Assembly: GCA_043801745.1 (NCBI GenBank)
Contig: JAZDLR010000016.1
Location: forward strand, 70,331 to 134,330
DNA from: Candidatus Komeilibacteria bacterium
GTDB lineage: Bacteria; Patescibacteriota; Patescibacteriia; UBA1558; 2-01-FULL-52-15
DNA: 64,000 nucleotides
Direction: 5' to 3'
The notes below the pieces were generated by a model. It saw nothing but the letters and a program-made list of their open reading frames with translations, was not told the origin of the DNA and did no database searches. This document shows positions 3,192 to 38,202 of the stretch, piece by piece. Made by a program: the position numbers and the translations under genes. Position 1 is the first letter of the stretch. Every line of letters begins with the position of its first letter.

Positions 3192-4292
3192 TTATTTCTG
3201 GCAAGGCCGGCAGACCCGGGCCTTGGTTTCCTGGAACCGTACCCGCCATGTCCGCTTCTCGGTCGGGAGCGGAAGGAAGGACACGGTGTCACCAGCGGTG
3301 CGTGAGCAGAGAAGCAGCTTCTCGTCGAGAAAGCTGGGAGGCGCCGCCTCGGCTCTGGCCTCTTTTCTTTCCCAGCGCAGGTTGAGCAGCCAGGCGATCC
3401 CGACTATGAGGAGCAATACCGAGTAGAAAATAAGTGGGGTGATGAGAAGGTACAGCCACCAGTTCCCCGTAGGCAGTCCAATGGTGTCGGCGACAATGAC
3501 GACTATCATGAAAAGTGCCAGCCAGATCAGGGGCGTAATAGGAACAAGGAAAACGTTGCCCCGGGCAGGATAATCATCGTAGTCACTGGACCGCACATCG
3601 TCGGGGTTGTAATTCAAGGGGTTGATTACCGGTCTCCAATCGATCCCCTGTTTGTTAAGGAGAAGGAGTCGCCAGACGGCATAGATCAGGGCTAGCAGCG
3701 GCTTGAGCAAGAAAATCACGACCGGCTGAATGAAGATGGCCACCAGCAGCCGCCCGCGTTCTTCACACTCGTTGGCCGGTTCGGAACCGAACCAGCGACT
3801 GATCCAGTGTTTCCACCAGGTCGGCCGTATGGGCGCGAAGTTCTTGTCAGATACGATGACCTTGACGGAGTCAAGGGCGATGAACTTCAGCTCCAGCTCT
3901 CGTCCGATAGTGCGCTGCAGCTCGGCCAAATCATAGCCTTCATCGTTGTAATTGAAGAGCTGACAGCTGAAGCTTCTGAAGGGACGGTTCAGAAGCTTCC
4001 GCATTTTTTCGGCCCCCCCCTTTCCTCCCAGCATGGAGTAGAAGACCAGGCCGATCAGATCATTGGCTCCGCCGGCATTGAACTGGACGAACTGCTGGAG
4101 TTCGTCAGCCCGCACCAGCCAACGCTGCTCATATCCGCTTTTGGTGCGGGTAACAAGCAGAACATAGATTTCCCTGACCTTTTCCTTGAAGGCCAGGGCT
4201 TCCAGCTCAGCAGCGTCAAAGCACCACTGAACCGGTAGATTGTTGGCCGCTTGTTCCAAGGCGGCCGGGATCAGTTTGAACTTGATGAACAT
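3192..4292 (-). CDS. membrane protein with ~190-aa cytosolic N-terminal domain and 3-4 C-terminal TM helices; unknown function
   Basis: Start set at MFIKFK (ATG 4292) with GGAGGT RBS 6 nt upstream. GC-rich relative to neighbours. Hydrophobic segments IFLLKPLLALIYAVW, LIWLALFMIVVIV and LLITPLIFYSVLLLIVGIAWLL. Confidence 0.6.
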   Translation of the reverse strand: MFIKFKLIPAALEQAANNLPVQWCFDAAELEALAFKEKVREIYVLLVTRTKSGYEQRWLVRADELQQFVQFNAGGANDLIGLVFYSMLGGKGGAEKMRKLLNRPFRSFSCQLFNYNDEGYDLAELQRTIGRELELKFIALDSVKVIVSDKNFAPIRPTWWKHWISRWFGSEPANECEERGRLLVAIFIQPVVIFLLKPLLALIYAVWRLLLLNKQGIDWRPVINPLNYNPDDVRSSDYDDYPARGNVFLVPITPLIWLALFMIVVIVADTIGLPTGNWWLYLLITPLIFYSVLLLIVGIAWLLNLRWERKEARAEAAPPSFLDEKLLLCSRTAGDTVSFLPLPTEKRTWRVRFQETKARVCRPCQK

Positions 4293-4410
4293 GGTTACCT
4301 CCGGGTTTGGGGTATTGTTGGCGCCGAGAAATGTGCAGGAAAAAGAATGTAAAAGGACGGGATCATATTTGCCTGATTTTGTCAAGAGGACATTCAATTA
4401 AATAACAAAA

Positions 4411-4460
4411 GCCCCGTTCCGCTGACTGCTTTTGCTTTGCAATCTTTTTGCGGAACGGGG
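4411..4460. promoter_or_regulatory. 12-bp-stem hairpin GCCCCGTTCCGC...GCGGAACGGGG in a divergent intergenic region
   Basis: Perfect inverted repeat with 27-nt loop. On the minus strand it is followed by a T-rich stretch (cttttgttattt). Lies between the 3192-4292 (-) gene start and the 4706 (+) gene. Confidence 0.4.
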
Positions 4461-4705
4461 ACACATCAGAACTGCAGCGCTGAGCCGCTGGGCGGAAAAT
4501 AGCACCAGACCAAACTCATCACGAAAACCACTGCACAGCAAGCGAGGAAAATAACAAAGAGAGAGAATAACCAGCGCCTGACCCTTTCCCGATTAATTCT
4601 CACCTAGCGCCTCCTTGGCTGGGTACGAAAACTTAAACATCCTAGTTCTTTTTTGGGTCAGCGTCAATGCTAGTAATTTAACAGCATTTATTTTATACTG
4701 TACTT

Positions 4706-5747: not shown

Positions 5748-6113
5748 ATGTTTAACTATAAACAAAGATTGGGGAAACAAGGAGAAAGCGCCGTGGTGCG
5801 TTGGATCCGCCAGCAGGGAGGTACTGTAATAGCCCGCAATAAACACTATTCCGGAGGTGAGTTGGATATTGTTGCTTGGTGGCAAGACCGCCTGTGTTTT
5901 ATCGAGGTTAAAACCCGAAGATATAATGATGATAATTATGGCGGATTGGACGAGGCCATTACCGCTGTCAAGTTAAACAAATTAAACGTGGCCGCACAGG
6001 CCTTTCTTCAGGGGTTGGTCAGCGAGCTGCCGGCTAGATATTTGATAGCGCTGGTTATAATCAATAATAATAAACAATTTACCATCCGCCTTGTTGAAAT
6101 TGAGGAAATATAG
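5748..6113 (+). CDS. yraN: YraN-family (UPF0102) endonuclease-like protein
   Basis: GESAVVRWIRQQGGTVIARNKHYSGGELDIVAW...IEVKTR matches the YraN/UPF0102 pattern. Confidence 0.7.
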   Translation: MFNYKQRLGKQGESAVVRWIRQQGGTVIARNKHYSGGELDIVAWWQDRLCFIEVKTRRYNDDNYGGLDEAITAVKLNKLNVAAQAFLQGLVSELPARYLIALVIINNNKQFTIRLVEIEEI

Positions 6114-7907: not shown

Positions 7908-9929
7908 ATGGTAACTACCATTGTGTTTCCTTTGCTGGCAGCGGTACTGGCTATTGCTGCCGGTCTATTATTGGCCCGCCGTGTTATGAGCCAGTCGGCT
8001 GGTACGGATAAGATGAAAGAAATCGCCGGTGCTATTCAGCAAGGCGCCAAGGCTTTCCTTAACCGTCAATATAAGACCGTGGCTTTTATCGCACTGCCAT
8101 TATTTCTAATTATCGGTTTTATTCCAGCTTTGGGTTGGTCGACGGCCGTCAGCTTCATTATTGGCGCTACCCTATCAGCCGCTGCCGGAATTATCGGCAT
8201 GAATGTGGCGGTCCGGGCCAACGTCAGAACCGCGGCCGCTGCCAATAATGGGTTAGCTCCGGCTTTACGTACGGCGGTTTTTGGTGGAGCGGTAACCGGA
8301 TTTCTGGTAGTTGGTTTGGGACTTTTGGGAGTGGCCGGTTTGTACGGCCTGGGCATGAGCGTCAATCACTTGATTGGCCTAACTTTTGGTTCTAGTTTAA
8401 TATCTGTTTTCGCGCGTTTAGGCGGCGGTATTTTTACTAAAGCAGCTGATGTGGGCGCTGATTTGGTGGGCAAGGTGGAAGCCGGCATTCCGGAGGATGA
8501 TCCGCGCAACCCGGCTACCATTGCCGACAATGTTGGTGATAATGTGGGCGATTGCGCCGGTATGGCCGCTGATTTATTTGAAACTTATGCAGTGACCTCG
8601 GTGATCACCATGTTGGTTGGCAGTCTGACCTATGTTGGTAAAGAGGAGGCAATTCTTTACCCACTAATTATTGGTGGTGTTTCGGTGATCAGCTCTTTGA
8701 TTGGATTATTCTTTATCCGTTTAGGCAAGGGCAAAAATATTATGGGCGCTCTTTATAAGGGTCTGATCGCGGCCGGAGTTTTGTCGGCTATTATTCTTTA
8801 CCCTATCACCACGTCCATGATGAGTGACTTGGTTAGCGTTAAAGCCCTAAATATTTACTGGTCAGCTTTGATTGGTTTGGCGGTTACTGCTTTTATGGTG
8901 GTTATTACGGAGTATTATACTTCCACTAAATACCGCCCGGTCCAGAATGTGGCCAAAGCCTCAGTTACCGGACACGGTACCAATGTTATTGCCGGTCTGG
9001 CCCTGTCTATGCGCTCGACGATTTGGCCCGCCCTGGTTATTATTATCGCCATCTTGTCCAGTTTCTGGTTGGCCGGTATTTATGGTGTGGCCATTGCGGC
9101 CATGGCCATGCTGTCCTTAGCAGGTATGATAGTTACTATTGATGCTTATGGACCGATTGCTGATAATGCCGGCGGTATCGCCGAAATGAGCGGTATGGAT
9201 AAAAATATTCGCGATGACATTATTGATCCTTTGGATGCTGTTGGGAATACCACCAAGGCCGTGACCAAGGGTTATGCTATTGCTTCGGCCGGCCTGGCAG
9301 CTCTAGTACTATTCTATGCTTATGTAACAGAAATTCAGCGGGCCGGTGCCAGTATCATCTTTGAATTATCTAATCCTTATGTGGTGGCCGGTTTGTTACT
9401 GGGTGGCTTGCTGCCGTTCTGGTTCTCATCGCTGTCCATGGAAGCGGTGGGTAAAGCAGCTGGCGCGGTAGTGGAAGAGGTGCGCTCACAATTTAAGAAT
9501 GATCCCGGTATTATGGCCGGAACTTCTAAACCTAATTATGCCCGCGCTGTTGACATTGTGACGTTGTCGGCTTTACGTCAGATGATTGTGCCAGCTTTGA
9601 TTCCGGTTTTGGCTCCGATTATTTTGGCTGTGATATTTATCAGACACGGCGAGCTGGCCATTCTGACAATTGGCGGTATGCTGATCGGCAGCATTGTCAC
9701 CGGTCTGTTCTTGGCTATTTCTATGACCTCTGGCGGCGGCGCTTGGGATAATGCTAAAAAATATATTGAAAAAGGCAATTTTGGCGGCAAGGGCAGCGAT
9801 GCTCATAAGGCCGCGGTTACCGGTGATACGGTCGGCGATCCTTACAAAGATACTGCCGGCCCGGCGATTAATCCGATGATTAAGATTCTTAATATTGTGG
9901 CTCTACTTTTGGTTGCCTTATTACTCTAA
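7908..9929 (+). CDS. hppA: membrane-bound proton/sodium-translocating pyrophosphatase
   Basis: [39 protein letters not shown] and [13 protein letters not shown] signature motifs of H+/Na+-PPases. 673 aa and highly hydrophobic. Confidence 0.9.
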
Positions 9930-11215
9930 TGAATATTCAAGAAAAAAAGCTGGACCACGGTCAGCTGCAACTTACTATTGAGTTAGCAGTTGATGAGTTG
10001 GTGCCATATATTGAGCGGGCCGCCAGCAGGCTGGCTCAAACAACGGCCATCGCGGGATTCCGTCCGGGTAAGGCTCCTCTGGAATTAGTCAAGTCGCATT
10101 TAGGCGAGATGAAGATCTGGCAGGAGGCCGCTCAATTGGCTGTTCCCAAAACTCTGCATCAGGCGATTCAGGAAAAGCATCTAATTACTGTGGGTCAGCC
10201 GGATGTAACATTAGAAAAATTAGCTCCCAATAACCCCCTGGTTTTTACCGCCACCATGGCTTTGATGCCCGAAGTGACCCTGGGTAAATGGCAAGCACTG
10301 AAAATGCCTCTGGATGAAGTTACAGTCAGTAGTGAAGAGGTAGATAAAGTGGTCAATGATTTTGCTTCCTGGCAGGCGACAGAAACTATTGCTGACCGGC
10401 CAGCGCAGCTGAAGGATAAAGTTGAGGTTGATTTCGAAGTATTAGTTGACGGTGTAGTAATTGAGGGCGGCAAAGCTATAAAGTACCCGATGATTTTAGG
10501 TTCTAGCAGTATGATCCCGGGCATGGAAGAACAAATAATTGGGCTTAAGGCTGGTGAGGAAAAAGAATTTGATCTGACTTTTCCCCAAGAATATTTTCAG
10601 GCCTCCTTGGCCGGCAAACAAGCTCGCTTCCAAGTGAAAGTAGTTACTGTAATGCAGCGCAATCTACCTATCATCAATGATGACTGGGCGCAGAAATTAG
10701 TTCATAAAACATTATTGGAATGGCGGCAGGAATTGCGCGCCAGTATTATGGCTGATAAGCAAGCCGAGAAGGCGCGTGAGTGGGAAAACAGTATCATGGA
10801 ACAGATTATTGGCGTCAGTACTTTCGGCGAAATACCGAAGACACTGCTGGCTAATGAAATTTCTAAAATGTTGCACGAGCTGCAGCATAGTGTGGAGCAG
10901 CGCCGGATGAAGTGGGCTGATTATTTACAGGGTATGAAGAAAACTGAAGAGCAGTTGAAACAAGAGTTCGAACCTACAGCCACGAACCGCGTGAAAGCCG
11001 CTTTGATTATGCGGCAAATTGCCAAGGATTCGGCCATGACTATAACCCTAGAAGAGTTGGAGCAGGATCTGGCCGCCCAGGAACAGCAGTATCAGGGTAA
11101 TGAGCAGGCCTTAGAAGTGGTGCATAGTCCGGAATACAAAGAGTATATGGAAAACGTTTTGATTAACCGCAAGGTAATGCAGTTGATTCGAGAAACCATT
11201 AATACCGAGAAATAA
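9929..11215 (+). CDS. tig: trigger factor
   Basis: GFRPGKAPLELVK motif and 428-aa domain order typical of Tig. ATG overlaps the hppA stop. Confidence 0.85.
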   Translation: MNIQEKKLDHGQLQLTIELAVDELVPYIERAASRLAQTTAIAGFRPGKAPLELVKSHLGEMKIWQEAAQLAVPKTLHQAIQEKHLITVGQPDVTLEKLAPNNPLVFTATMALMPEVTLGKWQALKMPLDEVTVSSEEVDKVVNDFASWQATETIADRPAQLKDKVEVDFEVLVDGVVIEGGKAIKYPMILGSSSMIPGMEEQIIGLKAGEEKEFDLTFPQEYFQASLAGKQARFQVKVVTVMQRNLPIINDDWAQKLVHKTLLEWRQELRASIMADKQAEKAREWENSIMEQIIGVSTFGEIPKTLLANEISKMLHELQHSVEQRRMKWADYLQGMKKTEEQLKQEFEPTATNRVKAALIMRQIAKDSAMTITLEELEQDLAAQEQQYQGNEQALEVVHSPEYKEYMENVLINRKVMQLIRETINTEK

Positions 11216-15763: not shown

Positions 15764-15847
15764 TGACAAATCATGGGTATCTTATTAAGGTGCCGATATT
15801 ACCTGTTCGTTTCGTTTTTTTAACAATCTAACCAAAGGAGCTGGACC

Positions 15848-16405
15848 GTGGCGAAAAAGAAAGTGGTCAAACAGCCGAAAGATCTGACCGAATTTCGTTT
15901 GGATATGGAAAGGATCGGTGAGTTGGAGCGCCAGATTGAAGGCGCGCAGTTGAATGCCGAGGATCAGATGGCGGCTATTCGCGCAAGCTTGCAACACAGA
16001 CTTGATCCTCGGGTAAAAGAACTGTCGGATCTGCTCGGCGGCTTGGTTGCCTTTGCGGAAGCTAACAAAGTCGCTCTGACTGATGCCGGCAAGTTGCGGA
16101 CCATTCAGCTCGGCGACGACAACTGGTTTGGTTGGCGCCTGTCTCCGCCCGGGGTGGAAATCCGCGGAGAAAAGGCGGTAATCAAGCGGCTTCAAGAAGC
16201 CGGGCTTGATCGTTTCATTCGTCAGACTCCGAAGATTGACCGCGAGGCCATGCTCAAGGATCGGGCAGCTGCCACGGCTGTTGTCGGAGTCAAGATCGTG
16301 CAGCGTGATGACTTGGTGATTCATCCGGCCAACCTGAATGCGGACGTGATTCCCGGACGTGGCAGTAGCTACCGCGTGGAGGGTCGGAAGAAACCGGCCA
16401 GCTGA
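15848..16405 (+). CDS. gam: bacteriophage Mu Gam-like protein (DNA-end-binding, host nuclease inhibitor family)
   Basis: ERIGELERQ...FAEANKVALTDAGKLRTIQLGDDNWFGWRLSPPGVEIRGEKAVIKRLQEAGLDRFIRQTPKIDREAML... aligns by eye with Mu Gam as recalled from memory (IGDLQRE...WCEANRDELTNGGKVKT...VSWRVRPPSVSIRG...LGLQRFIRTKQEINKEAIL). GTG start after AAAGGAG. GC-rich. Confidence 0.8.
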   Translation: MAKKKVVKQPKDLTEFRLDMERIGELERQIEGAQLNAEDQMAAIRASLQHRLDPRVKELSDLLGGLVAFAEANKVALTDAGKLRTIQLGDDNWFGWRLSPPGVEIRGEKAVIKRLQEAGLDRFIRQTPKIDREAMLKDRAAATAVVGVKIVQRDDLVIHPANLNADVIPGRGSSYRVEGRKKPAS

Positions 16406-24378: not shown

Positions 24379-25104
24379 TCATCTACCGATTCTGGTGGAG
24401 ATAGGAAATGGAGGATCGTTCAGGATCCAACGGTGATGGCGTAGGTGTCCGAGTGATTCCCCCGGTTGTGGGTAGGCGCCACTACTAGCGGGTTTAGTGT
24501 AGATGCCGTAGGGGTCAATTTTTTGCCAGCTGGCACCCTTGCCTTTGTGCTCGAAAACCTCAATGTGAAGCTGGATGATACGCTTAGTACGCCCGGTATT
24601 TCCGGCTCGTCCGAGGTAGTCGCCGCAATCAATCTTGGCTTCCTTAAACTGCCAACGGTCAGCTTCATCAGCTGGCAGGTGAGGGATAGCTTTGTTGACC
24701 GTGGCGAGATGAGCATAGATAGTGCGGTAAACAGTAGTCTGACCGCGCCGCGGCTCGGATGTTACGGCTACGAAGCGGCCCCAGCTTGAGCTGGTCCCTT
24801 GGTAGGCTGTGCCGGCATGCATACCAAAAACTTCAAAACCTAAAGCCCGTAAGCCTTGGGTATTGAAGTGAGAGCCGGGCGCCAGCTGGACACCGTCAGC
24901 AAAAGAGAGTCCTTTGCCAACCGGCAGAACATAGTCAATGCCCCGGTGTATCTCCCCTGGCGGATCACCCAGAACACCATCGTAAACAGGAAATCCTTCC
25001 ACTAGCCGCACTCGTGGGTTAGAAAAGGGGTAACACTCCAGAAACTTTGGCATTATTGTAGTCTCCTGTTGAGAGAAAGGACGCATTTTCTTTGAGACTA
25101 TCAT
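24379..25104 (-). CDS. M23-family metallopeptidase
   Basis: H-x-x-x-D (HRGIDY), YAHL and LHIEV (HxH) motifs of the lysostaphin-type M23 family. Confidence 0.7.
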   Translation of the reverse strand: MIVSKKMRPFSQQETTIMPKFLECYPFSNPRVRLVEGFPVYDGVLGDPPGEIHRGIDYVLPVGKGLSFADGVQLAPGSHFNTQGLRALGFEVFGMHAGTAYQGTSSSWGRFVAVTSEPRRGQTTVYRTIYAHLATVNKAIPHLPADEADRWQFKEAKIDCGDYLGRAGNTGRTKRIIQLHIEVFEHKGKGASWQKIDPYGIYTKPASSGAYPQPGESLGHLRHHRWILNDPPFPISTRIGR

Positions 25105-28557: not shown

Positions 28558-29154
28558 ATGAAACCCGGTTTTTTTTCGGTAGGGAGTTTCATTGCTCAGC
28601 TGCCGACTCTGGTGGCTGGCCGCCGCTCGCTTTTTGCTTTGTTCAGCACTTACAATACGGTGGGCGGCCATCGGGATGGTCTGGTTGAGACGGGAATGGC
28701 CGATCTGTCGGTCATTGTTTCGGCTGGGGGGTATAAGATGAGTCTGGCATCGCTGATGGCAGCCACTACTGCCATGCAAGCCGGCAGCCGGGCCATCGCC
28801 CATGCGATCTTCGATGCCTCCCACGCTCAGGCTGCGGAAATTCAGCAGGAGGTGGGCCAGGAAGCGCAAACGGTCCTTGCAGAGGCGACTGACGATATCC
28901 TCGCCATCGTCTATGCGGGCTACAGTGCCTTCAATGCGGCGTTGGAGTTTGCCCAAAGGCTTCATTCCCAGCATCCGCGGGCGCAGGTGTATGTTCTGAC
29001 CTGCGATTGTGACCAGACCCGCAAGCAAGTCGAGTTGCGGTCCGCCATCGACGACGGTCTCATCACCGGCGCGATCGAGACCTGGAAATGCGGTGGGGTT
29101 TCGGACATGGGCGATCTTCTGGAAGCGCTGATCAGCGCCTGGAAGGCACGCTGA
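28558..29154 (+). CDS. hypothetical protein (GC-rich, paired with the MOCOS-like gene)
   Basis: AAGGAG RBS before the ATG. The antisense 213-aa ORF 28540-29181 is judged spurious (GC-rich antisense). Confidence 0.5.
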   Translation: MKPGFFSVGSFIAQLPTLVAGRRSLFALFSTYNTVGGHRDGLVETGMADLSVIVSAGGYKMSLASLMAATTAMQAGSRAIAHAIFDASHAQAAEIQQEVGQEAQTVLAEATDDILAIVYAGYSAFNAALEFAQRLHSQHPRAQVYVLTCDCDQTRKQVELRSAIDDGLITGAIETWKCGGVSDMGDLLEALISAWKAR

Positions 29155-29228: not shown

Positions 29229-29861
29229 CTATTTTTTTTCTTTTATTTGTCCATCTAATCCGCCGTAATTTATAGCGGGAAGAGCGATCTCGTTAAATCT
29301 AGGATCGGCTTGTTTAGGAATCGGCGCAGTTATGTCTTTCATTTTTGGGCTTCCGGGCTTTACTGGTTCCTGCCTGATTACTTGTATATGGATGTCTCCA
29401 CCGACAAAGCCAAGCGTAACGTGAAAATCTTTCGGGGGCAGTCCGTGTTCAGAGCGAAATTTTTGCAGCGCGGGTATTTCGAAGGAAACAAAAGTAGTCT
29501 TTTTCACCTTATCTACTTCTCGCATTTGCTGTTCGGTAGCAGCTCCGTCAATGAAACCAAGCCCCATTACTGTAATACCCTGGCCATTTTGTAGGTCGGT
29601 ATTAATTTGCTGAAGTTCAGCTAGTGCTTCATCATCTAACGTGCTCAAAATTTTGCTCTCGGTAGGACTAATAATTGTTAAATGATAACCATCGGCCCTG
29701 GGCTGAAGGTCAGCGCCAGTAATAGTCTTTACGGCTTCTAGCGCCGGCGTGAAATCTGCCTGTATTTCTATTTCTAGGGTTTGCATATCGGCCAGACGCT
29801 CGCGGGTTAATTCGGGCGCTTTCTTTAGCAGTTCATCCGTACTCCATTCATGATTTGTCAT
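29229..29861 (-). CDS. 2H phosphoesterase superfamily protein (LigT/2',5'-RNA-ligase-like)
   Basis: Two H-x-T-x motifs (GYHLTII and FHVTLGF) spaced ~90 aa apart, as in LigT-like cyclic phosphodiesterases. Confidence 0.5.
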   Translation of the reverse strand: MTNHEWSTDELLKKAPELTRERLADMQTLEIEIQADFTPALEAVKTITGADLQPRADGYHLTIISPTESKILSTLDDEALAELQQINTDLQNGQGITVMGLGFIDGAATEQQMREVDKVKKTTFVSFEIPALQKFRSEHGLPPKDFHVTLGFVGGDIHIQVIRQEPVKPGSPKMKDITAPIPKQADPRFNEIALPAINYGGLDGQIKEKK

Positions 29862-30521: not shown

Positions 30522-31214
30522 ATGAGACCTTATTCATACAACTCTTTGAAGGCGCCAGTTATGGCTTTACGACGAAGAGGGAAAACGTACGCCGAGATTT
30601 GTGCGCATTTACAGGTTCCGATTGCAAAAAGCACCATCTCCTATTGGTGTAAGGATGTGAAGCTCACCAAACAATCGAAGCAACAACTAAAGCATCGTGT
30701 AGAAACGCATCTAGCTAAGCAAAGGGTTTTGGCGTTAAAAGCTAATATTGCCAGGAGGAATAGGTATTTAAAAGAAGTTGATAAACGGGTTTCACATTTG
30801 GGTTCTCACCTAAAAAACAGAAGCGTGGGAAAAATAGTTTTGTCCATACTTTATTGGTGCGAAGGGAAGGGTTCGCAAAGCAGTTCCTTAACATTTGGTA
30901 ACTCAAACCCAGAAATTATTAAGCTATTCTTATCAGTTCTTAGAAAGAATTACGACATAGATGAAGCAAAGTTTCGTTGCACACTACAAGGAAGAGCTGA
31001 CCAAGGAATTAGGGAATTGGAAAAATATTGGTCAACGGTCACTGAAATACCATTGTCACAATTCTATAAGGCACGAATTGATCCGCGGTCAGCAGGCAAA
31101 ACTTCAAGAAAGAAAAACTATAAAGGCGTTTGTAGGATAGATTACTTTTCTGCAGATATCTTTCATGAATTAAAAGCAATACAAAAAAGTTTAATTAAAA
31201 ATATGGGCCTGTAG
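30522..31214 (+). CDS. LAGLIDADG-like homing endonuclease with N-terminal HTH
   Basis: KIVLSILYWCEGKGSQ followed by TFGNSNPEIIKLFLSVLRKNY resembles a degenerate LAGLIDADG block and its following helix. Basic HTH-like N-terminus. The 3' end overlaps tRNA-Ala by 10 nt. Confidence 0.5.
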   Translation: MRPYSYNSLKAPVMALRRRGKTYAEICAHLQVPIAKSTISYWCKDVKLTKQSKQQLKHRVETHLAKQRVLALKANIARRNRYLKEVDKRVSHLGSHLKNRSVGKIVLSILYWCEGKGSQSSSLTFGNSNPEIIKLFLSVLRKNYDIDEAKFRCTLQGRADQGIRELEKYWSTVTEIPLSQFYKARIDPRSAGKTSRKKNYKGVCRIDYFSADIFHELKAIQKSLIKNMGL

Positions 31215-31281
31215 CGCAGTTGGTTAGCGCGTTTGCATGGCATGCAAGAGGTCGAGGGTTCGAATCCCTCCAGGTCCACCA
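31205..31281 (+). tRNA. tRNA-Ala (GGC)
   Basis: G3:U70 pair in the acceptor stem. Anticodon loop ATGGCAT. T-loop GGTTCGAATCC. Encoded CCA. Confidence 0.85.
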
Positions 31282-31567
31282 AAGCATTAAGCAGGGTTAT
31301 TTGACGCTGTTTTTTGTTAATTTATGGCCTATATTACCTATATTAATATGCTACTTGACAGATAATATATTATATGCTATACTTAAGTATTACGGTAAAT
31401 ATTGGCTTTTTACGTTATCCTGGTTCTTTTATAAAACGGGAGAAAAATAAGCGGAATCCTTCTTATTTCCACCCATGTGGGTAGTGTTTTGGGCGCCTAC
31501 TCAGGTTCTCAGCGCACTACCCATTTCGGACGGAAAAAGACAACTCAAACCAACGGAGGATCAAACC

Positions 31568-32344
31568 ATGCGCATTCTCATCATCGACGACAGTAGCCTT
31601 TGGATCGAGCAGGGCAAGAAGCTCCTCGAGCCGGCCGGTCACGAAGTGGCCGGTGTGCTGGTCGGCGATCCCAACCTCTTCACAACGGAATCGTTGCTGC
31701 AGTCGGTTGGTGCTGCCTTTCAAGAGACCGACGTGCTGTTGGTCGACAAGGACTTCGGTGCTGGGATCACGTCCACGCGGCTGATCTGCGTGGTCAGGAG
31801 CTGGTTTCCCCAGCTGCCGATCATCCGCTGGACCGGTGGCTACGACCAGAAGCCTTACATGGGTTATCTGGGCGTGAGTCAGATGGAGAAGCCCACTCGG
31901 AAGAATGAGGTCAAGTTCATCGAGACCTTCAACGGGGCTCTCGAGGAGCAGCGGCTCATCTTGTCCGGACCCATGGGCATCTTTGCCGCTCTGGATGAGA
32001 CGGCCAAGCCCGACGAGTACGCGGCCGAGAGTCGGGCTCAGCGGCTGCGGCAGATTGCCGAAATCAGCCAGCTCGCCCGCAAGGATCGGGCGGAGTCGAA
32101 GGATTGGCGTTATCCCTGGATGATCACCGGGCAGGCCGGTGGTGCGACCAAGCACGAGCTCGGCCACGCCATCTGCGACGGCCATCTCACGGCCGAGGAC
32201 ATCCGTCCTCACCTGGCGGATCTGCAGTTGGTCATCGCCAAGTTCGAGGCCGCCGGCGAGATCGACGACCGGTTCCGGATCTGCGCCGAGTTCATCAAGG
32301 CTGGCAATCTGGACGAGCTTGAGCTGGTCCGGCACTGCTACTAG
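31568..32344 (+). CDS. orphan response-regulator receiver (REC) domain protein with C-terminal HExxH domain
   Basis: MRILIIDDS...VLLVDKDF receiver pattern. C-terminal KHELGHAICDGH (HExxH). ~63% GC by eye. GGAGGA RBS. The 272-aa antisense ORF is judged spurious. Confidence 0.65.
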   Translation: MRILIIDDSSLWIEQGKKLLEPAGHEVAGVLVGDPNLFTTESLLQSVGAAFQETDVLLVDKDFGAGITSTRLICVVRSWFPQLPIIRWTGGYDQKPYMGYLGVSQMEKPTRKNEVKFIETFNGALEEQRLILSGPMGIFAALDETAKPDEYAAESRAQRLRQIAEISQLARKDRAESKDWRYPWMITGQAGGATKHELGHAICDGHLTAEDIRPHLADLQLVIAKFEAAGEIDDRFRICAEFIKAGNLDELELVRHCY

Positions 32345-32371
32345 CAGAACCGGCCTCCCGTGTGAAACACG

Positions 32372-32407
32372 CCCCGTGGCAGAACATCGCCACGGGGTTT
32401 TCTTTTA
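32372..32407 (+). terminator. intrinsic terminator (CCCCGTGGC...GCCACGGGG + TTTTCTTTT)
   Basis: Seen directly. Confidence 0.65.
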
Positions 32408-32460
32408 TATATAAATTTTTCCCTGTTTACAGCACCTAAGATATTAGCTATTCTATTAGC

Positions 32461-34595: not shown

Positions 34596-37815
<3,220 letters not shown>

Positions 37816-38202
37816 CTAAAGCTTTGCAAGCTTTATGTCCCCCATAGTTTTATACGAAGGGGGAAGATTGATTCACCATCTTTACCGATTGGGTATAGTC
37901 CGCTATACTAGTTCGGTAATTAGCATATTATATATAGAGAGTTATTGCTCATGAATATTCACAATCGAAACACTGGAGTTATTACCCTAGTTGTTGTATG
38001 TATTGGCCTGGTTGTTTTAGTGGGGGCAGTATTATTACTGACCCCGATTGATCCCAGCCTGCTGCATTAAATAATTATTTAAAGGGTGACCCCGCTATCG
38101 GCCGTAGGCCGAGCGGGGCAAGCAGTGTCCCCGCCTTCGCTCCTCGTTATACTCGGAGCTACGGCGGGCAAGTAGGTACTTTTTAAAAAATCGAGCATAG
38201 TG

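Follow-up and report, generated by a model that had tools for sequence, protein, structure and literature searches.

An orphan receiver-domain protein with a helical output domain of unrecognised fold in a Candidatus Komeilibacteria genome

The gene and its expression signals

The stretch of DNA analysed here, referred to as the window, comprises 64,000 nucleotides of contig JAZDLR010000016.1 (positions 70,331 to 134,330, forward strand; GenBank assembly GCA_043801745.1) from a Candidatus Komeilibacteria bacterium. Within it, we studied a gene whose 258-residue product joins a CheY-like receiver (REC) domain to a helical C-terminal domain with the motif HELGH (Table 1). An original prediction, made from the letters of the window, had described this gene with the motifs LLVDKDF and HELGH, and every factual point of that description was confirmed, the latter motif occupying residues 196-200. 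The gene product shows 100% identity to an entry annotated as "hypothetical protein" in a Candidatus Komeilibacteria metagenome-assembled genome (MAG). Translation was assigned to the ATG at 31568 (MRILIIDD) because every homologue begins there, while an in-frame ATG further upstream, at 31475, would add 31 residues without conservation.

To judge from its sequence, the gene is a self-contained unit in which a predicted promoter, a leader, a Shine-Dalgarno sequence, the coding sequence and a terminator follow one another, and it is placed between a tRNA-Ala gene and a 23S rRNA gene. The Shine-Dalgarno sequence and the terminator had been predicted before; both were recovered, together with the promoter. 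A homologous locus from Taylorbacteria (L001) keeps equivalent promoter hexamers, TTGACG and TACACT, and carries an analogous hairpin followed by a T-run after its stop codon. The leader of the window gene, which matched no family in Rfam, has a minimum free energy (MFE) of -53.2 kcal/mol (z=-2.8), and the L001 leader adopts the same shape, its hairpin (about 5905-5950) being closed by GAGTAGCG...CGCTACTC, which includes two compensatory pairs in the basal stem. These two sequences weakly suggest a leader hairpin conserved at both the Komeilibacteria and the Taylorbacteria locus, and a further locus, L003, may hold a related GGTAGC/GCTACC stem. A 5' leader conserved throughout the family was considered and rejected, as the element is common only to the window and L001, and perhaps L003.

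Table 1. Positions of the gene, its domains and candidate functional residues, and adjacent features in the window
Feature	Position	Strand	Remarks
tRNA-Ala(GGC)	31205..31281	+	found by ARAGORN and Rfam; the gene unit begins about 75 nt further on
Predicted sigma-70-like promoter	31355..31383	+	TTGACA, 17-nt spacer, TG-extended TATACT; 11/12 consensus matches
Leader, about 180 nt	31390..31567	+	extent deduced from where the promoter lies; homologous to that of L001
Leader hairpin	31477..31520	+	MFE fold; basal stem GGGTAGTG...CACTACCC plus inner stems
Antisense 272-aa open reading frame	31517..32335	-	artefact, not a gene
Shine-Dalgarno sequence GGAGGA	31555..31560	+	8 nt before the ATG; read from the sequence
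Coding sequence, 258 aa plus stop	31568..32344	+	stop codon 32342-32344
REC domain, residues 1-113	31568..31906	+	AlphaFold2 fold, Foldseek and signature residues
D60 codon GAC	31745..31747	+	predicted phospho-acceptor, first Asp of LLVDKDF; end of strand 56-60
C74 codon	31787-31789	+	candidate ligand, in the receiver domain
C-terminal all-helical acidic region, residues 114-258	31907..32341	+	pLDDT of the separate model 89.6
H196-E-L-G-H200-A-I-C203-D204-G205	32153..32182	+	putative metal-binding face on helix 188-203
C239 codon	32282..32284	+	candidate ligand
C257 codon	32336-32338	+	candidate ligand
Predicted intrinsic terminator	32371..32408	+	10-bp stem (32371-32398) with 8 G-C pairs, then T-run TTTCTTTTAT

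An open reading frame (ORF) of 272 aa runs antisense to the gene. It was rejected as a gene of its own, since it is broken in four homologous loci (L003, L004, L007 and L009) and since conservation reaches 64-70% in the sense frame versus 43-50% in the antisense frame; it is open because the sense gene uses no TTA, CTA or TCA codons.

No HisKA or HATPase domain, as expected of a histidine kinase, was detected in any ORF between 19951 and 44784, about 12 kb to either side of the gene, in agreement with the statement of the original prediction that no such kinase lies nearby, and for the homologue loci that were inspected the lists of genes contained no kinase either. The gene thus lacks the classical two-component pairing, with a kinase adjacent or in the same operon, and is an orphan.

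Upstream, its neighbours are genes for tRNA-Leu and tRNA-Val, a 230-aa ORF and the tRNA-Ala gene; downstream, a 366-aa ORF without homologues is followed by the 23S and 5S rRNA genes. The 230-aa ORF (30522-31214, + strand, GC content 0.38), located between tRNA-Val and tRNA-Ala, has a weak N-terminal helix-turn-helix (HTH) match (HTH_28/HTH_23, IS3-like, E about 0.005-0.1) and may be a mobile-element remnant or a homing-endonuclease-like gene. Adjoining the tRNA cluster, a 210-aa protein (29229-29861, - strand) contains a 'Swiss Army Knife' 2H phosphoesterase domain (PF22547, E=1e-15). The match to the 23S rRNA model extends over 3219 nt (34601-37819) versus a model length of 2925 nt, implying about 290 nt of insertions. 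There is no 16S gene upstream of the 23S gene; the tRNAs and three protein genes, the studied gene among them, are found there.

Receiver domain, C-terminal domain and the HELGH region

The window protein gave no Pfam match at E<=1 and none in NCBIfam, and the gathering threshold of PF00072 was not reached. Therefore, the assignment of residues 1-113 to the REC family needed independent support. A structural model was built with AlphaFold2 on 39 homologues, and strands were assigned by DSSP. The full-length model had a mean predicted local distance difference test score (pLDDT) of 93, with five strands alternating with helices in the (beta-alpha)5 order of receivers. In Foldseek searches it was superimposed on solved receiver structures (CheY4, NtrX, PhoP, FleR and CpxR) with template modelling (TM) scores of 0.70-0.76, root-mean-square deviations (rmsd) of 2.9-3.8 A and E-values of about 1e-5. 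In the model, D7/D8, D60, T89 and K108-P109 occupy the C-terminal ends of strands beta1, beta3, beta4 and beta5, respectively.

Conservation was counted in a 53-member core family and in 68 members overall. The signature residues of receivers are nearly invariant in the core (D7 52/53, T/S89 51/53, and D8, D60, K108 and P109 53/53 each); overall, K108 was present in 68/68 members and D60 in 61/68. Moreover, PF00072 was weakly matched by 31 of the 39 relatives (best E-value 4e-5). The family profile matched, at positions 2-126 and E=0.004, a 143-residue chain in the PDB that had been deposited as 'histidine kinase' (8pdc_A); this marginal match in the receiver region was the only one obtained when phmmer and the family profile were run against PDB sequences. 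An hhalign comparison of the family with Escherichia coli CheY aligned the first 28 columns only, in which D7/D8 correspond to D12/D13 of CheY. On these grounds we regard the N-terminal part as almost certainly a genuine receiver domain. The REC domain with its Asp in LLVDKDF, as originally predicted, is thus borne out by the fold and by all signature residues, the phospho-acceptor site being intact. As modelled, the receiver carries all residues needed for phosphorylation on Asp and thus looks competent for it, with D60 as the predicted acceptor.

Beyond the receiver, helix alpha5 is extended as a long helix (residues 114-132) into a domain of six helices and one small, two-residue hairpin. 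This C-terminal part measures about 125-145 aa. The minimal conserved unit spans approximately residues 150-258, the only part present in two short members of the family (P0056 and P0061). The region has a pI of 5.1, with 26 Asp or Glu versus 18 Lys or Arg, and direct DNA binding is therefore unlikely. When the C-terminal domain was modelled alone, Foldseek returned nothing significant, either from the PDB (best E=0.68, TM<=0.34) or from the viral models of BFVD (best E=0.12), and all matches obtained with the full-length model were driven by the REC domain. Its sequence matched no PDB sequence, the whole protein matched nothing in Pfam, NCBIfam, PADLOC or PHROGs, and no Pfam family was assigned to the C-terminal domain in any of 39 members. 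The combination of REC with this domain is absent from Pfam and NCBIfam, and nothing relevant on REC-HExxH fusions or on orphan regulators of Patescibacteria was found in the literature. The receiver part is thus of a well-known kind, while the C-terminal part, absent from every library searched, is a new output domain without recognisable fold relative. Both the uncharacterised nature of the domain and the novelty of the architecture had been correctly anticipated.

The HELGH sequence lies on helix 188-203, and the chance expectation of an HExxH in a protein of such size is about 0.007. Conservation extends well past the motif: in the core, G199, H200, C203, C257 and C74 were found in 53/53 members, H196, D204 and G205 in 52/53, and C239 in 49/53, the remaining four having Thr. 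Along the helix, H196, H200 and C203 follow an i, i+4, i+7 spacing, and the four cysteines of the window protein (74, 203, 239 and 257) are all at family-conserved positions. In 42/53 members a cysteine at position 201 creates a CxC. Further invariant polar residues are Q128, Q220, D233, R235, E250 and Y258. Within the motif, the least conserved residue is E197 (48/53 core, 52/68 overall). In the core it is replaced by Gln in three members and by Ala and Thr, the remaining motif residues being intact there; in more distant aligned members Met, Thr, Cys, Ala, Val, Lys or Ile is found, and two short members have Asp and Ser. H196 is Gln, Asp, Ala or Lys in 8/68 members.

In a zincin the glutamate of HExxH is the catalytic base. 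Such a base would not be expected to vary more than any other position of the motif, and the HELGH region is therefore very probably not a zincin active site. A metal-binding site fits the conservation of G-H-x-x-C-D-G together with C239, C257 and C74 better than a protease centre. The pattern points to H-x3-H-x2-C-D-G plus the other cysteines as a candidate metal site, which could hold Zn, Fe or an iron-sulphur (Fe-S) cluster. Of the two findings that the original prediction had named as speaking against itself, one was obtained in half, as the Glu of HExxH varies while both His are conserved, and the other, a match of the C-terminal domain to a known non-catalytic fold, was not obtained. Elsewhere in the window, a single other HExxH occurs among the 40 long ORFs, at residue 316 of a 428-aa protein (9929-11215, + strand) that may be a metalloprotease.

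Family distribution, genomic contexts and base composition

An exhaustive search of 1.84 billion cluster representatives with a hidden Markov model (HMM) of the family yielded 55 proteins in 31 clusters. Two of these clusters (P0079 and P0080) were spurious and represent repeat proteins; the remaining ones consist of proteins of 256-322 aa with the same layout of REC and C-terminal domain, or of short pieces. All members that carry a taxonomic label belong to Patescibacteria, among which the occurrence is patchy, with copies in Komeilibacteria, Taylorbacteria, Portnoybacteria, Minisyncoccia and Saccharibacteria MAGs. A GTDB match in Actinomycetes (L013) was discarded as a spurious frame within a giant coiled-coil gene. 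A scan of viral contigs revealed no relative, so that a phage origin is without support.

Sixteen distinct contexts of the gene were inspected (the window, L001, L003-L007, L009-L011, L016, L020, L021 and L024-L026), and the flanking genes differed almost everywhere. The sole recurrent neighbour, present in 7 of the 16, encodes an orthologous winged-helix regulator of the TrmB family of about 250 aa, which matches PF01978 at 44-64 bits (cutoff 25.6 bits). Its gene is divergent and directly upstream in L003, L006, L011 and L016; in L024 it is found 1 kb upstream, and in L005 at a distance of 3 kb. In L026, which represents a distant subfamily, the TrmB gene is on the opposite strand just downstream, and another winged-HTH protein is encoded divergently upstream; the L026 member (P0070, 28% identity to the window protein) is thus flanked by a double-HTH_24/AsnC-type protein and the TrmB orthologue (1693-2514 and 3773-4603). 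As the identity of TrmB-linked members to the window protein varies between 28% and 70%, the linkage is probably ancestral and functional. The adjacency suggests that the TrmB-type protein is a partner or controller of the receiver protein.

The gene also stands out by its base composition. Its GC content is 0.618 and its GC content at third codon positions (GC3) 0.82, in 2-kb flanks of about 0.42 GC, and only 6 of its 258 codons end in A. The 777-nt stretch with the highest GC content in the window coincides with the gene region (0.629, z=3.7; runner-up 0.582), as the original prediction had noted in calling this the strongest GC deviation of the window, and among the 40 window ORFs the gene is the top GC3 outlier, typical values being 0.36-0.50. 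Four further ORFs of the window without Pfam match have raised GC3 (3192-4292, - strand, 0.71; 15785-16324, - strand, 0.62; 24379-25104, - strand, 0.52; 28558-29154, + strand, 0.67; typical value about 0.42) and look like additional foreign or lineage-specific islands.

Horizontal transfer of the gene is supported by its varying contexts, by close copies that adjoin different genes and by tRNA and transposase genes nearby. The window and the Taylorbacteria locus L001 have promoter, leader and gene in common and nothing past the stop codon; similarity in blastn reached 143 nt upstream of the ATG, and in a pairwise alignment the leader region, promoter included, was 78% identical. The copies in L001 and L016 are 89% identical (79% at 4-fold sites), and their upstream neighbours differ, an IS66 transposase gene in the former and the TrmB gene in the latter. 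tRNA genes occur at most 2.4 kb upstream in five contexts (tRNA-Ala in the window; L009, L004, L001 and L003), and transposase genes were found near the gene in L001 and L024. The window gene itself was most likely acquired by horizontal transfer.

The source of the GC-rich codons is harder to account for. All core-family copies are richer in GC3 than their surroundings (0.47-0.80 versus 0.375-0.525 in the flanks), and this holds for copies beside TrmB genes of host-like GC3 (0.26-0.48). Neither GC-rich contexts nor viral contigs yielded a copy of the family. At 4-fold sites the window copy is approximately saturated relative to all sampled homologues, with an observed range of 0.26-0.48 versus 0.25-0.37 expected. 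In the distant subfamily, the L026 gene is not GC-rich. Not all of these observations can be reconciled with a simple import in recent times from a GC-rich donor: either the donor reservoir is unsampled or the synonymous sites are constrained. Of the horizontal acquisition that had been proposed for the gene, the transfer as such is therefore upheld by the varied contexts and the tRNA and transposase neighbours, whereas a simple recent GC-rich donor is at odds with the family-wide GC3. Two loci contain small upstream ORFs that are likewise rich in GC3 (L004 5351-6013, 0.67; L005 5163-5492, 0.79), without Pfam match and mutually dissimilar; since the GC-rich segment includes an extra ORF there, the imported segment can comprise more than one gene.

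Proposed function and comparison with known systems

The reading that we prefer, tentatively and with slightly less than even confidence, is that of an orphan response regulator, from a small family found only in Patescibacteria, in which phosphorylation controls a metal-containing helical module that acts through protein interaction. D60 would receive its phosphoryl group either from an unlinked kinase or from a small donor, for example acetyl phosphate; the signal would pass via the alpha4-beta5-alpha5 face into the helical domain, whose cluster of His, Cys and Asp residues would coordinate Zn, Fe or an Fe-S cluster. The output would be an altered protein-protein interaction, and neither peptide-bond hydrolysis nor DNA binding. 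The best candidate for a partner or controller would be the TrmB-family winged-helix regulator, which is beside the gene in many relatives and not in the window.

Several points weigh against parts of this proposal. Pfam is silent on a REC domain in the window protein even at a permissive E-value. No TrmB homologue is encoded in the 64 kb of the window, and the adjacency elsewhere could mean that TrmB merely regulates the gene. The invariant Q128, H196, H200, D204, Q220, D233, R235, E250 and Y258 would also suit an enzyme or ligand pocket, and the retention of E197 in 48/53 core members leaves room for a catalytic role in the core subfamily.

The last two points bear on readings in which the C-terminal domain is an enzyme. 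A metal-dependent hydrolase had originally been proposed; as a zincin-like metallohydrolase or protease, the protein would bind zinc through HELGH with E197 as catalytic base, and phosphorylation of the REC domain would switch its activity. HELGH is indeed present and, given its conservation in the core at all three key positions, far from what chance would produce, and the small beta-hairpin precedes the motif helix. Against this stand the loss of E197 from core members with an otherwise intact motif as well as from distant and short ones, an all-helical domain that matched neither a zincin nor any other fold, the lack of any peptidase family match in 39 members at E<=1, and the lack of a recognisable third-ligand motif of gluzincins, metzincins or aspzincins; we consider a zincin highly improbable. 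A metal-dependent enzyme of a new, non-zincin fold, for example a phosphohydrolase or an enzyme of nucleotide second messengers, is unlikely. H196, H200, C203 and D204 would form its metal centre, and D233, R235, Q220, E250 and Y258 would bind the substrate. Many response regulators have an enzymatic output domain, the invariant polar residues are more numerous than a minimal structural metal site would need, and the acidity of the domain makes nucleic-acid binding unlikely. However, the domain resembled no enzyme family or fold, it is a small one with about 110-125 aa of helices, and no substrate-related genes are conserved nearby, the sole conserved neighbour being a transcription factor.

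The conserved histidines might instead pass on the phosphoryl group, from D60 to H196 or H200 and then to another regulator, which would make the domain a histidine phosphotransfer module (HPt- or DHp/Spo0B-like). In the model the conserved His residues are on an exposed helix within a helical bundle, and an HPt protein (1wn0) is in the Foldseek list with a non-significant score (E=7.1, TM 0.28); we also take the H-E-L tripeptide to resemble the H-box of HisKA, and the REC fusion to resemble those of phosphorelays. Yet no Hpt or HisKA match was obtained in 39 members at E<=1 and the fold match is not significant, the co-conserved C203, D204, C239 and C257 are foreign to such domains and point to metal binding, and H196 is substituted in 8/68 members. 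A phosphotransfer role is accordingly judged very unlikely. The cysteines could also serve in a redox- or oxygen-sensing Fe-S or thiol switch, by which the helical domain would be a second input and phosphorylation would be integrated with the redox state. Such a sensor would be in keeping with the conservation of four Cys and two His in a cytosolic protein, the Patescibacteria being presumably anaerobic and fermentative, and with the additional CxC formed with C201. This reading is wholly inferential. Known Fe-S motifs and folds are not matched, and C239 is replaced by Thr in part of the core; we hold it to be unlikely. Little credence is likewise given to an extended version of the preferred reading, namely a module specific to the Candidate Phyla Radiation (CPR) in which a phosphorylatable receiver governs an unseen metal or Fe-S helical fold together with an archaeal-type TrmB, carried by a self-expressing cassette that moves between distant Patescibacteria and whose extreme GC3 is held by selection on DNA or RNA and is not the leftover of a recent donor.

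The regulatory repertoires of Patescibacteria are very reduced, and to our knowledge almost none of their lineage-specific proteins is understood. A confidently modelled new output domain with defined candidate ligands and a recurrent TrmB neighbour provides an entry point to signalling in this group, and the family-wide GC3 enrichment with its saturated synonymous divergence bears on how genes move and are maintained in these episymbiotic bacteria.

The receiver itself resembles CheY-like receivers (PF00072; CheY4 4h60, NtrX-REC 4d6y, PhoP-REC 2pl1) in its (beta-alpha)5 fold and in the placing of the acidic pair, the acceptor Asp, the Thr and the Lys-Pro, each at its canonical strand end. It differs from them in the invariants of its own family (W12, C74 and R87-W88), in the absence of an aromatic switch residue at the position of Y106 in CheY, in a divergence that in the window protein is too great for a Pfam score, and in having no linked cognate kinase. 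Regarding the output, the closest parallels are receiver proteins whose output is enzymatic or otherwise not DNA-binding, or that act on a partner, such as PorX, PhyR and CheY; the window protein likewise combines a receiver with a long alpha5 or helical linker and a non-HTH output. PorX was the top full-length match in Foldseek, with an rmsd of about 12 A that reflects the REC domain plus helices only, and the output domain is unlike both the phosphatase-like domain of PorX and the sigma-like domain of PhyR. By analogy, the logic of a REC-controlled protein interaction may nevertheless be shared with these proteins.

With zincin metallopeptidases the domain shares the literal HELGH on a helix; the Glu is not conserved, and neither a zincin fold, a third ligand nor a peptidase match was found. 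Zinc-binding anti-sigma (ZAS) domains (HxxxCxxC) and other helical Zn sites have a similar ligand spacing (here H196-x3-H200-x2-C203), further Cys residues elsewhere and a small helical domain. In contrast to ZAS, the motif here is HxxxHxxC, there is no match to zf-HC2 (PF13490) or to the ZAS fold, and no gene for a sigma factor is linked. Receiver proteins commonly carry output domains that are uncharacterised, and nothing established is overturned by the present family: it adds a new output domain to a familiar signalling protein and is not a new kind of system.

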